Counted from the first letter of the stretch, positions 26,807-30,265 are shown. The stretch is DNA of 64,000 nt from Escherichia coli (GCF_003019035.1 NZ_CP027447.1), one strand, 5' to 3'. The notes: generated by a model not told the origin, from the sequence alone. Program-made: numbers and translations.

Positions 26807-27441
26807 TGAACAAAGCAAAACGCCTGGAGATCCTCACTCGCCTGCGTGAGAACAATCCTCATCCCACCACCGAGCTTAATTTCAGTTCGCCTTTTGAATT
26901 GCTGATTGCCGTGCTGCTTTCCGCTCAGGCGACCGATGTCAGTGTTAATAAGGCGACGGCGAAACTCTACCCGGTGGCGAATACACCTGCAGCGATGCTT
27001 GAACTGGGCGTCGAAGGGGTGAAAACCTATATCAAAACCATTGGGCTTTATAACAGCAAAGCAGAAAATATCATCAAAACCTGCCGTATCTTACTGGAAC
27101 AACATAATGGCGAGGTTCCGGAAGATCGTGCTGCGCTTGAAGCCCTGCCTGGCGTAGGTCGTAAAACAGCCAACGTCGTATTAAACACTGCATTCGGCTG
27201 GCCGACTATTGCTGTCGACACGCACATTTTCCGCGTTTGTAATCGTACTCAATTTGCGCCGGGGAAAAACGTCGAACAGGTAGAAGAAAAGCTACTGAAA
27301 GTGGTTCCTGCAGAGTTTAAAGTCGACTGCCACCATTGGTTGATCCTGCACGGGCGTTATACCTGCATTGCCCGCAAGCCCCGCTGTGGCTCTTGTATTA
27401 TTGAAGATCTTTGTGAATACAAAGAGAAAGTTGACATCTGA
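26806..27441 (+). CDS. nth: Endonuclease III (DNA glycosylase/AP lyase)
   Basis: 211-aa ORF with HhH-GPD and a C-terminal Cx6CxxCx5C cluster. Confidence 0.95.
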   Translation: MNKAKRLEILTRLRENNPHPTTELNFSSPFELLIAVLLSAQATDVSVNKATAKLYPVANTPAAMLELGVEGVKTYIKTIGLYNSKAENIIKTCRILLEQHNGEVPEDRAALEALPGVGRKTANVVLNTAFGWPTIAVDTHIFRVCNRTQFAPGKNVEQVEEKLLKVVPAEFKVDCHHWLILHGRYTCIARKPRCGSCIIEDLCEYKEKVDI

Positions 27442-27447
27442 AGAAAA

Positions 27448-27470
27448 GGGGTAACACCGATTACCCCATT
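27448..27470 (+). terminator. Hairpin after nth
   Basis: ggggtaa-caccgat-tacccc inverted repeat; weak T-tract. Confidence 0.4.
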
Positions 27471-28051
27471 GATAACCTTTCTTTATCCTCTTTTAAAACA
27501 TCTTTTTAACGTCAATGATGCCATTGCTTAGCGTTATCATCAGGTAATCCGTTTGCGGATAACCAAAAATGCAGGTTAATTGTTTTTTTAATAGCGAAAT
27601 TTTCTATTCATTCGTGATCAAGATCACGATGCTGTGGCAATGTAAAAACATTGCAAGAACTAGGTTAAAATCATTTAAATTTACACACGCAACAAATATT
27701 GACCTACAAAACATTACACTGGCTATTTTTCAGAAACTGGACTATCTCACTAGGAAAAACGCTAAATAGCAGAACATATCGCCGTTAAGCCATCATCCCC
27801 CTCTCAGGGTAGTGAAAAAATCTGCCGTTACGTTTTTTGAAAAATTTAACGCTGGATAACATTTCCCGGAATGGTTGAATTCCCCGCCTCAGTTATATGT
27901 AACAGATTATTACAAAGGACTTGTCTGAAAGTGCAAGATAGTGAACATTACCTGCCGTTTCCCCTCCCACTATAACAATTGCGCGTATGTTTTTTAGGCA
28001 TAACGCGAGAAAGCACCCCCGTTAATATGGGATGTAAAAAAAGAGGTAAAA

Positions 28052-29554
28052 GTGTCCACTGCAAACCAAAAACCAACTGAAAGCGTCAGTTTGAACGCTT
28101 TCAAACAACCGAAGGCGTTCTATCTCATCTTCTCGATTGAGTTATGGGAACGTTTTGGTTATTACGGCCTACAAGGAATTATGGCTGTTTACCTGGTTAA
28201 ACAACTGGGTATGTCTGAAGCGGATTCAATCACCCTTTTCTCTTCCTTTAGTGCCCTGGTTTATGGTCTGGTCGCTATCGGCGGCTGGTTAGGTGACAAG
28301 GTACTGGGTACTAAACGCGTAATTATGCTTGGCGCTATTGTGCTGGCGATTGGTTATGCTCTGGTGGCCTGGTCTGGTCACGACGCCGGTATCGTTTATA
28401 TGGGTATGGCGGCTATTGCGGTCGGTAACGGCCTGTTTAAAGCTAACCCGTCTTCTCTGCTTTCTACATGCTATGAGAAAAACGACCCGCGTCTGGACGG
28501 TGCATTCACCATGTACTACATGTCCGTCAACATCGGCTCTTTCTTCTCTATGATCGCCACCCCGTGGCTGGCCGCGAAATACGGCTGGAGTGTTGCGTTT
28601 GCGTTGAGCGTTGTAGGCCTGCTGATCACTATCGTTAACTTCGCCTTCTGCCAACGCTGGGTTAAACAGTACGGTTCAAAACCAGACTTCGAGCCTATCA
28701 ACTACCGTAACCTGCTGCTGACCATTATTGGTGTTGTGGCACTGATCGCTATCGCCACCTGGCTGCTTCACAATCAGGAAGTTGCGCGTATGGCGCTGGG
28801 CGTTGTTGCCTTTGGTATCGTGGTTATCTTCGGTAAAGAAGCCTTCGCGATGAAAGGTGCTGCGCGTCGTAAAATGATCGTTGCCTTCATCCTGATGCTC
28901 GAAGCCATTATCTTCTTCGTGCTGTACAGCCAGATGCCAACGTCACTGAACTTCTTTGCGATTCGTAACGTTGAACACACCATTCTGGGCCTGGCCGTAG
29001 AACCTGAGCAGTATCAGGCACTGAACCCGTTCTGGATCATCATTGGTAGCCCGATTCTGGCCGCTATCTATAACAAGATGGGCGATACCCTGCCGATGCC
29101 AACTAAGTTTGCAATCGGTATGGTGATGTGTTCTGGTGCGTTCCTGATTCTGCCGCTGGGTGCAAAATTCGCGTCTGACGCAGGTATCGTGTCTGTAAGC
29201 TGGCTGGTCGCAAGCTATGGCCTGCAGAGTATCGGGGAACTTATGATCTCTGGTCTGGGTCTGGCAATGGTTGCACAACTCGTTCCGCAGCGTCTGATGG
29301 GCTTCATTATGGGTAGCTGGTTCCTGACCACTGCCGGTGCAAACCTGATTGGTGGTTATGTTGCGGGTATGATGGCTGTGCCGGATAACGTTACCGATCC
29401 ACTGATGTCACTGGAAGTCTATGGTCGCGTATTCTTGCAGATTGGTGTTGCTACTGCCGTTATTGCAGTACTGATGCTGCTGACCGCGCCGAAACTGCAC
29501 CGCATGACGCAGGATGACGCTGCAGACAAAGCGGCGAAAGCTGCTGTAGCGTAA
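28052..29554 (+). CDS. dtpA: Proton-dependent di/tripeptide permease (POT family)
   Basis: 500-aa ORF, GTG start; multi-TM POT transporter. Confidence 0.92.
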
Positions 29555-29659: not shown

Positions 29660-30265
29660 ATGAAATTGTTCTACAAACCGGGCGCCTGCTCTCTCGCTTC
29701 CCATATCACCCTGCGTGAGAGCGGAAAGGATTTTACGCTCGTCAGTGTGGATTTAATGAAAAAACGTCTCGAAAACGGTGACGATTACTTTGCCGTTAAC
29801 CCTAAGGGACAAGTGCCTGCATTGCTGCTGGACGATGGTACTTTGCTGACGGAAGGCGTAGCAATTATGCAGTATCTTGCCGACAGCGTCCCCGACCGCC
29901 AGTTGCTGGCACCGGTAAACAGTATTTCCCGCTATAAAACCATCGAATGGCTGAATTACATCGCCACCGAGCTGCATAAAGGCTTCACACCTCTGTTTCG
30001 CCCTGATACACCGGAAGAGTACAAACCAACAGTTCGCGCGCAGCTGGAGAAGAAGCTGCAATATGTGAACGATGCTCTGAAGGATGAGCACTGGATCTGC
30101 GGGCAACGATTTACAATTGCTGATGCCTATCTGTTTACGGTTCTGCGCTGGGCATACGCGGTGAAACTGAATCTGGAAGGGTTAGAGCACATTGCGGCAT
30201 TTATGCAACGTATGGCTGAACGTCCGGAAGTACAAGACGCGCTGTCAGCGGAAGGCTTAAAGTAA
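29660..30265 (+). CDS. gstA: Glutathione S-transferase
   Basis: 201-aa GST-fold ORF. Confidence 0.93.

Follow-up and report, generated by a model that had tools for sequence, protein, structure and literature searches.

The 64,000-nt stretch of the Escherichia coli chromosome analysed here, hereafter the window, carries the genes rsxD-rsxG-rsxE-nth, an intergenic gap, and then dtpA-gstA, with pdxY on the opposite strand. The first gene beyond the gap, dtpA (synonyms tppB and ydgR), encodes the principal proton-driven importer of di- and tripeptides in E. coli. As nth ends at 27441 and the GTG start codon of dtpA lies at 28052, the gap spans exactly 27442-28051, and the 610-bp AT-rich intergenic region that a sequence-only reading had placed upstream of dtpA proves correct to the base. 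The GC fraction across the gap is 0.33-0.41, against 0.47-0.55 in the flanking genes, and homopolymer runs of seven residues occur at 27583-27589 (T7) and 28036-28042 (A7). In K-12 MG1655 the gap is also 610 bp long (1712159-1712768) and is devoid of any annotated feature. Within a 50-kb portion of the K-12 chromosome it ranks as the largest of 46 intergenic gaps (median 82.5 bp; the next largest are 390 and 333 bp), and it attains this size despite the fact that nth and dtpA lie on the same strand, an arrangement that creates no need for divergent promoters.

The gap is also widely retained. It was found, at an identity of at least 95%, in 5423 of 5426 complete E. coli genomes, and for a broader comparison we assembled the dtpA locus from 80 Enterobacteriaceae species representing more than 20 genera, from which an alignment of 72 sequences was built. 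In 70 of the 80 species the distance between nth and dtpA is 570-638 bp. The long AT-rich gap is thus a real feature of the locus and not a product of chance. Nine positions distinguish the gap of this strain from that of K-12, and eight of the nine sit in weakly conserved columns of the alignment. The features that we recognize in the gap and at the start of dtpA are compiled in Table 1.

Table 1. Features of the nth-dtpA gap and of the beginning of dtpA, in window coordinates
Feature	Position	Strand	Description	Source
Fast-evolving spacer adjoining nth	27442-27574		Holds a hairpin after the nth stop codon (27445-27470)	
Distal regulatory DNA	27575-27940		Conserved blocks and unconserved spacers; fixed length	
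Block A	27572-27631			
CRP site	27611-27631 (centre 27620.5)		ttCGTGAtcaagaTCACGatg; inside block A	Footprint-seq
Block B	27706-27784		Consensus ...ACATTA.aCcag..aTTTTtcagA..atgG.CtaTatcACTg...aaatAGCAGAAcATATcGcc	
GadX ChIP-exo peak	27793-27813		Repressing; in unconserved spacer	PMC4918353 supplement
Block C	27810-27822		cAGTGaAAAAAaC	
Block D	27842-27865		AAATTTAACgCT..ATAACATTT	
OmpR ChIP-exo peak	27880-27939		Activating; abuts -35 TTGTCT	PMC5438342 supplement
Block E	27893-27917			
Block F	27920-27952		Core promoter	
Core sigma-70 promoter	27921-27957	+	-35 TTGTCT (27921-27926), 17-bp spacer, -10 AACATT (27944-27949), start ~27955-27957	
dtpA 5' leader	27955-28051	+	~96 nt; C-rich invariant tract, ATAAC.AT, hairpin 1, hairpin 2, A-rich tract, SD	
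Conserved first part of leader	27955-27979			
Leader hairpin 1	27982-28007	+	Pairing kept, sequence not	
Leader hairpin 2	28013-28035	+	Invariant core CCCCG-UUAAUA-UGGG	
Conserved hairpin 2 and SD region	28013-28051			
SD	28041-28046	+	AAGAGG	
Beginning of dtpA	28052-28103	+	GTG start; C/A-rich codons 3-9 (28059-28078), candidate GcvB R1 site; hairpin 28078-28103	

The position of the dtpA promoter can be deduced from mutational and protein-binding data that are already published. A recurrent A-to-T SNP, designated 'nth/dtpA intergenic (+503/-108)' and placed adjacent to the -10 element, was recovered in three of four long-term stationary-phase populations, where it was accompanied by a ~23-fold increase in dtpA mRNA (PMC7858067). 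This SNP corresponds to window position 27944 and converts AACATT to TACATT, supplying a better first base to the -10 hexamer. The ChIP-exo peaks discussed below were mapped with a 1976-bp coordinate shift, which we take to be the offset between the K-12 sequence versions. With this assumed shift, the tabulated position of the OmpR peak (-46.5) implies a transcription start at 27956 and that of the GadX peak (-151) a start at 27954, and the implied starts lie 6-8 nt 3' of AACATT. Collectively, the promoter-up SNP and the two ChIP-exo tables imply a start site near 27956, and therefore a dtpA leader of ~96 nt and not of 610 nt. The term 'leader', which the sequence-only reading had applied to the entire gap, is consequently not supported for most of it, since a start at ~27955-27957 would leave only ~96 of the 610 bp as 5' UTR.

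The core promoter so defined includes the sequence GATAGTGAACATTAC, which is invariant across the aligned species. It is weak and activator-requiring, as judged from its -10 hexamer AACATT and from the 23-fold effect of a single-base change. A consensus scan of 27300-28200 returned no sigma-70 site with at least 9 of 12 matches (0, where 2.0 were expected), and the lack of a consensus-grade promoter is what one would expect of a promoter that depends on an activator. We also considered TATAAC (27971-27976) as the main -10 element, an assignment that looks appealing from the sequence by itself and under which the mRNA would begin with hairpin 1; the promoter-up SNP (27944) and the offsets given in the two ChIP-exo tables favour AACATT, and TATAAC is kept as a possible minor start.

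The activator is OmpR. The published OmpR table lists a single ChIP-exo peak for dtpA, at 1710621-1710680 in old K-12 coordinates, and classes it as activating (PMC5438342). Under this peak lies the invariant sequence TATATGTAACAGAtTATTACAAA, which corresponds to block E and is constant across genera. A lacZ fusion carrying the dtpA region from -201 to +15 was strongly reduced in an ompR deletion strain, and the same fusion was repressed when OmpR was overproduced (PMC5175337). OmpR is thus positioned directly upstream of the -35 element, as in the class of OmpR-activated sigma-70 promoters exemplified by ompF, ompC and tppB. Two other regulators have been reported at the gap: GadX, whose table entry (1710534-1710554, old coordinates) is classed as repressing (PMC4918353), and YdcI, for which a ChIP peak has been published in the intergenic region upstream of dtpA. 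Whether OmpR occupies additional sites in the distal part of the gap is a matter of conjecture. Block D looks like a direct-repeat box of the OmpR family and scores 7.5 bits (27845-27864) with a PWM that we built from six canonical OmpR boxes, a value indistinguishable from chance; the number of PWM matches in the gap does not exceed that in shuffled sequences, and the conserved blocks reach only 6.7-7.5 bits. The pentamer AACAT is enriched in the E. coli gap (seven copies vs 2.2 expected, P = 0.008), and strong conservation is confined to two of the copies, one being the -10 element. With a PWM that shows no enrichment and AACAT copies that are mostly unconserved, we do not propose multiple OmpR boxes.

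The leader that follows the promoter bears the only structured RNA signal in the gap. In sliding-window RNAalifold analyses with column-shuffle controls, consensus structure was seen only within 27941-28088 and only in the plus-strand orientation (z -3.6 and -2.8), whereas the consensus energy for 27442-27940 was zero on both strands. The sequence-only reading had seen no structured RNA by eye, a statement that stands for 27442-27940 and gives way over the last ~70 nt, where the dtpA leader carries a conserved pair of hairpins. RNAalifold applied to the MAFFT alignment of the leader is blind to hairpin 1, whose stems are aligned out of register, and this element was instead evaluated by folding each species separately. 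Hairpin 1 forms in all 59 distinct sequences (dG -7.9 to -16.5 kcal/mol, median -10.9 kcal/mol; median z -2.4), and these comprise 42 distinct stems with four to six pair types at each helix position. The maintenance of pairing through so many different stems points to selection on RNA pairing in hairpin 1; two of the differences from K-12, at 27997 and 27998, are located at the top of this hairpin. The pairs of hairpin 2 are unchanged or show one-sided changes, for example, G-U to G-C or A-U, and this near invariance makes hairpin 2 uninformative with respect to compensatory change.

Several known forms of leader-based control were compared with these structures. No U-tract follows hairpin 1 on its 3' side, and hairpin 1 is thus not an attenuator. 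In the predicted fold of the E. coli leader, the C-rich tract and the SD are joined by a helix of only 4 bp, between CCUC and GAGG, respectively. More generally, with respect to riboswitches, attenuators and thermosensors, the leader yielded neither a match to an RNA family nor an expression platform, and compensatory support was obtained for hairpin 1 only. Post-transcriptional control by the small RNA GcvB is established from other work: tppB is a verified target of the GcvB R1 region in Salmonella, and RIL-seq chimeras have been recovered in E. coli (PMC9299463). In duplex predictions with GcvB R1, codons 3-9 of dtpA represent the best window of the mRNA at -20.2 kcal/mol, a value that is not significant when compared with shuffled sequences (P ~0.09).

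Upstream of the core promoter, we found no sign of a gene encoding a protein or an RNA. The E. coli gap does contain a plus-strand ORF of 66 aa at 27569-27769 and a minus-strand ORF of 36 aa at 27604-27714, and a locus tag, KPN_01971, has been assigned between nth and dtpA in Klebsiella pneumoniae MGH78578. Intact homologs of the two E. coli ORFs were, however, present in none of the 67 other species. Since the distal segment is free of indels, its reading frames can be compared directly among species, and every frame contains 2.6-5.4 stops per species with no 3-nt periodicity; a measure based on stop-free stretches gave no discrimination, and the conclusions are drawn from ORF homology and from these frame-wise tests of stops and periodicity. 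An in-frame ORF conserved across genera, as expected of a small-protein gene, was therefore not detected, and the earlier statement that the gap holds no ORF is borne out to the extent that none upstream of the core promoter is conserved beyond Escherichia. At the RNA level, a covariance-model scan with Rfam 15 at permissive thresholds recovered no credible RNA family in the gap (best E-value 1.3, all bit scores far below the gathering thresholds).

A search for conserved intrinsic terminators inside the gap was likewise negative. The hairpin that follows nth (GGGGTAA...TTACCCC) has a T-run on the minus strand only, and this T-run is not conserved and is already degraded in Escherichia albertii. 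The one 'terminator' that is widely shared, detected on the minus strand in 84% of species, is leader hairpin 1 read in the opposite direction. These observations bear on the proposal that an independent small RNA or small protein is encoded on either strand of the gap, for example, a minus-strand transcript ending at 27448-27467. On the minus strand the nth hairpin is indeed followed by TTTTCTTC, and the ORFs and the K. pneumoniae locus tag could be enlisted in favour of the same proposal, but the minus-strand terminator occurs in only ~15% of species and no promoter or consensus structure accompanies it. A small-RNA gene would be recognized by a promoter of its own together with a conserved intrinsic terminator, and neither was found. 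We consider an independent gene in the gap highly improbable. Given that the ORF, RNA-structure, terminator and Rfam tests were all negative, the upstream 500 bp most likely acts as DNA.

What sets this upstream DNA apart is its length. The gap is divided by its evolutionary behaviour into a first part of ~130 bp after nth that is unconserved, with inter-genus identities of 0.2-0.5, and a distal segment, 27575-27940 (365 bp), that measures 363-365 bp in all 68 non-Escherichia species and exactly 364 bp in 63 of them. Adjacent sequences in the same species serve as controls and behave very differently: the 133 bp adjoining nth takes 28 distinct lengths ranging from 97 to 265 bp across the 68 species, the 105-bp gap between dtpA and gstA takes 19 distinct lengths from 98 to 166 bp, and the promoter-proximal 112 bp takes eight. 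Within the distal segment, conservation over more than 20 genera reaches 90% or more in 111 of 366 columns, and these columns are gathered into near-invariant blocks separated by spacers whose identity falls to ~0.3. The blocks are anchored at distances of 42, 42, 38, 50 and 40 bp with a standard deviation of 0.00. Conservation recurs with a period of ~42 bp. Block B displays no ORF, RNA structure or promoter signal. We examined a CACTG...CAGTG inverted repeat that flanks block B2 as a candidate RNA stem and set it aside, as roughly half of the genera lack it; what resembles a compensatory change at this repeat in the present strain is apparent only and is not found in K-12. A search for internal duplications or tandem repeats in the gap recovered none.

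A second regularity is seen in base composition. When A/T content is averaged across species, the dominant period is 10.25 bp (P = 0.003 for the 10-11 bp band and P = 0.02 for any period, by column permutation). The phasing is weaker in the unconserved columns alone (P = 0.01), derives mostly from the conserved columns, and is not visible in the E. coli sequence taken by itself. Fixed spacing and A/T phasing are both compatible with looping of the DNA, and neither identifies a protein.

The location of the conserved blocks immediately 3' of nth raises the question of which gene they serve. Because the gap follows nth on the same strand, and because the nth hairpin lacks a plus-strand U-tract and read-through is therefore plausible, the blocks could in principle constitute a 3' UTR, a terminator or a processing site of the rsx-nth operon. 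The genus Kosakonia provides a natural experiment on this point. Its members have acquired an opposite-strand gene for a 163-aa membrane protein directly after nth, and the positions of blocks B, C, D and F relative to the start of dtpA are nevertheless maintained (-284, -241, -211 and -115); since the insertion leaves the distances to dtpA intact, the blocks belong to dtpA and not to nth. The part of the gap adjoining nth is moreover the least conserved and the most variable in length, and it shows no consensus RNA structure. An assignment of the blocks to the rsx-nth operon is the least probable of the alternatives considered here, and to us scarcely credible.

Block A contains a site for a known protein. 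A 2026 Footprint-seq preprint reports, in a table of novel CRP sites with Kd values below 10 nM, a site at K-12 position 1712342 that binds CRP with a Kd of 2.1 nM and is assigned to dtpA (PMC12871828). Window positions 27611-27631 are identical to this site letter for letter. At the homologous position, the CRP core is kept in 52 of 68 species, counted as at least eight of ten matches to TGTGA-N6-TCACA, and most other genera read TGTGATCnnGATCAC, which is nearer to the ideal than the E. coli version. The centre of the site lies ~335 bp upstream of the inferred start and thus at none of the class I or II positions (-41.5, -61.5, -71.5, -82.5, -92.5). A search for a -10 element at a conserved offset from the CRP site was negative on both strands, with the best offset common to only 38% of species. 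This distance, together with the lack of a -10 element at class I or II spacing, indicates that no classical CRP-dependent promoter is present. As a separate observation, a location at -335 is far beyond the classical range of CRP activation, and the affinity of the site is known from in vitro work.

A conserved CRP site of nanomolar affinity to which no promoter has been assigned nonetheless invites the proposal that, under some conditions, for example, carbon limitation, dtpA is also transcribed from a second promoter, far upstream near block A and dependent on CRP, with a leader of ~300-400 nt as the outcome. E. coli has a TAAAAT at 27666-27671, 3' of the CRP site, which might act as a -10 element. 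The absence of any -10 element at a fixed distance from CRP argues against this proposal, as does the fact that 27632-27705, just 3' of the CRP site, is the least conserved stretch of the distal part and displays no consensus RNA structure and, in E. coli, no promoter-like site. In addition, the proximal promoter already explains both the OmpR dependence and the 23-fold up-mutation. We therefore regard a long-leader transcript as unlikely.

At the opposite extreme, the upstream part might be no more than AT-rich filler, or a supercoiling-sensitive spacer coated by H-NS, in which nothing beyond the OmpR site is sequence-specific. The low GC content of the gap is in line with such a proposal, and no harm has been reported from the use of the gap as a 'neutral' landing pad. 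Older Salmonella work is also said to have tied tppB expression to DNA supercoiling. Filler should nevertheless not hold 111 of its 366 columns at 90% identity or more over more than 20 genera, nor preserve exact spacing while nearby spacers drift, and it should not contain a specific CRP site with nanomolar affinity. This alternative, too, has very little probability in our estimation. The description of the gap as a large regulatory region, by contrast, is well founded: published OmpR, GadX and CRP sites all map inside it, and a large share of its sequence is conserved between genera.

Taken together, the evidence makes it very probable that the gap is a region for transcriptional and post-transcriptional control of dtpA and not a 610-nt leader. 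As we envision it, 27442-27574 would be a neutral, indel-prone spacer that carries the hairpin at the nth 3' end, and 27575-27940 would be non-transcribed regulatory DNA in which putative protein-binding blocks are held at fixed distances. In this DNA, CRP would sit farthest upstream, at about -335; conserved blocks would span about -250 to -90, with a GadX site specific to Escherichia near -150, and OmpR would lie next to the -35 element. A sigma-70 promoter of apparently deliberate weakness, TTGTCT-17-AACATT, would then start transcription at ~27956 and yield a ~96-nt leader with two hairpins, an A-rich SD and a GTG start, with GcvB acting on the mRNA. Some of these steps have been shown in published work: the weak promoter is activated by OmpR bound at about -75 to -17 and is repressed by GadX and by an excess of OmpR, and the A-to-T change at 27944 in its -10 element increases mRNA 23-fold. 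Other steps we infer from conservation: the distal blocks and CRP may act as DNA, by forming a protein-DNA assembly, bent or wrapped, for which the rotational setting of the sites is critical in addition to their distance, and hairpin 1 may act as RNA, through an effect on stability or translation. A bent or wrapped assembly would account for the exact spacing of the blocks and for the 10.25-bp A/T phasing.

A more specific and distinctly more tentative version of this model, in which we place only limited confidence, envisages 27575-27940 as a fixed-geometry, enhanceosome-like assembly upstream of an otherwise ordinary sigma-70 promoter. CRP at -335 and at least four blocks would then need exact rotational as well as linear spacing, a requirement that would account for the lack of tolerated net indels in more than 20 genera despite spacers whose sequence has been randomised.

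Comparisons with well-studied control regions help to place these proposals. The closest analogue of the dtpA region is the control region of ompF, in which OmpR binds sites F1-F3 next to the -35 element and a distal site, F4, at about -380 to -350, with looping assisted by IHF and with the small RNA MicF acting on the leader. Both ompF and dtpA combine a weak sigma-70 promoter with OmpR just upstream of the -35 element, activation at low and repression at high levels of OmpR, ~400 bp of conserved control DNA, and a small RNA that acts on the mRNA, GcvB in the case of dtpA. The two regions differ in that the distal landmark of dtpA is a CRP site instead of an OmpR site, and in that dtpA has one OmpR peak and no distal enrichment of canonical boxes. 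Furthermore, dtpA is reported to depart from the osmoregulation pattern of ompF and ompC (PMC5175337).

For CRP in an architectural role, the nearest precedent is the malEp-malKp region, where CRP and MalT form a higher-order complex to which CRP contributes as an architectural component. Both regions have a CRP site that is too distant for contact with RNA polymerase and that lies among position-sensitive conserved sites. The malEp-malKp promoters are divergent, whereas the dtpA region serves a single promoter, and at dtpA the CRP distance, ~335 bp, is larger and the effect of CRP putative. With the class I and II promoters of lac and gal, dtpA shares a consensus-quality 22-bp CRP site with nanomolar affinity; it differs from them in having this site centred near -335 with no -10 element at class I or II distance in most species. 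At the RNA level, the ompA leader, with its stabilising stem-loop at the 5' end, offers a further comparison. Both the ompA and dtpA leaders belong to mRNAs of envelope proteins and have a hairpin kept by selection on pairing; hairpin 1 of dtpA, however, begins ~27 nt after the inferred start, whereas the ompA element lies almost at the 5' terminus. At that distance, hairpin 1 is not a terminal stabiliser of the ompA type, unless transcripts arise from a minor start at ~27982.

The literature already covers the OmpR-dependent promoter, the sites for GadX and CRP, and the control by GcvB, and the feature as a whole must therefore be counted as known. In the literature that we located, we found no description of the near-invariant 365-bp length or of the conservation of the CRP site and of blocks A-D across more than 20 genera. 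Our overall assessment is that the gap is a known, OmpR-dependent, multi-factor promoter region with a distal part of fixed length. The sequence-only reading was right to single out a real and unusually long regulatory gap, which consists mostly of promoter and upstream control DNA and not of leader.

These findings have practical as well as biological consequences. Synthetic constructs and genome-integrated promoter libraries are widely placed in the 'nth-ydgR intergenic locus', which is treated as a neutral landing pad. With its CRP, OmpR and GadX sites and its deeply conserved blocks, the gap is not neutral DNA, and insertions may consequently disturb the control of dtpA or place reporters beside strong protein-binding sites. 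Adaptive mutations have, in addition, repeatedly hit the dtpA promoter in cultures under long-term starvation (PMC7858067). If the enhanceosome-like model is correct, dtpA would join signals of carbon supply (CRP) and of envelope state and pH (OmpR, GadX), and possibly of amino acids or oxygen, by means of DNA geometry, and would do so over an acting distance that is unusual for activation of sigma-70 promoters in bacteria. The near-invariant 365 bp upstream of dtpA offers a clean natural test case for the limits that spacing and helical phase impose on a bacterial promoter region.

The beginning of the dtpA leader is more strongly conserved than a transcription start region would be expected to require, and its CCUC pairs with the Shine-Dalgarno sequence across 4 bp only. 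This tract could serve as a protein-binding site, an sRNA site or, by way of TATAAC, a second -10 element. Further downstream, within the coding start of dtpA, lies a hairpin that is a candidate for a role in translation initiation or in the action of GcvB; read on the minus strand, the same element receives a terminator score, as it does in ~40% of species.

Features in and around the nth-dtpA gap (window positions unless stated)
Feature	Position	Strand	Sequence	Remark
Start of dtpA leader, ~25 nt	27955-27979		CCGTTTCCCCTCCCA.TATAAC.AT	Near-invariant across genera
Hairpin in dtpA, 26 nt	28078-28103		GAAAGCGUCAGUUUGAACGCUUUC	Codons 9-18; directly 3' of C/A-rich tract
Hairpin 3' of nth	27445-27470		T-run TTTTCTTC (minus strand)	Plus-strand tail weak
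Palindrome 3' of CRP site	27641-27656		CAATGTAAAAACATTG	Diverged in E. coli
gstA	29660-30265
nth-dtpA gap	27442-28051			K-12 1712159-1712768
163-aa predicted membrane protein gene	1832-2323 of the Kosakonia oryziphila dtpA locus (L054)	minus		Between nth and dtpA control region

In several genera (Trabulsiella, Yokenella, Franconibacter), TGTTAATTTTATGTTG stands immediately 3' of the CRP site, at positions homologous to those occupied in E. coli by a diverged palindrome. The TGTTAATTTTATGTTG sequence resembles the ArcA direct-repeat consensus.

At the nth end of the gap, read-through of rsx-nth transcripts into the gap appears possible, since the hairpin that follows nth has its T-run on the minus strand and no more than a weak plus-strand tail. 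The gap itself is enlarged in some relatives: to ~1175 bp in Kosakonia, where the predicted membrane protein gene is inserted, to 1061 bp in Phytobacter and to 735 bp in Intestinirhabdus. In K. pneumoniae MGH78578, the tags KPN_01970 (nth) and KPN_01972 (dtpA) imply an annotated ORF, KPN_01971, within the homologous gap; because no conserved ORF is present there, this is probably a spurious call.

A long-term stationary-phase dataset lists gstA V46F beside the dtpA promoter SNP, and within one population many clones are scored for both changes (PMC7858067). The gstA change may represent hitch-hiking.

Finally, the 'nth-ydgR intergenic locus', which corresponds to the entire gap, is employed as a landing pad for chromosomal insertions that are taken to be neutral (Kuhlman and Cox 2010), including for genome-integrated promoter MPRAs. 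This supposedly neutral locus holds CRP, GadX and OmpR sites, together with blocks of deep conservation.
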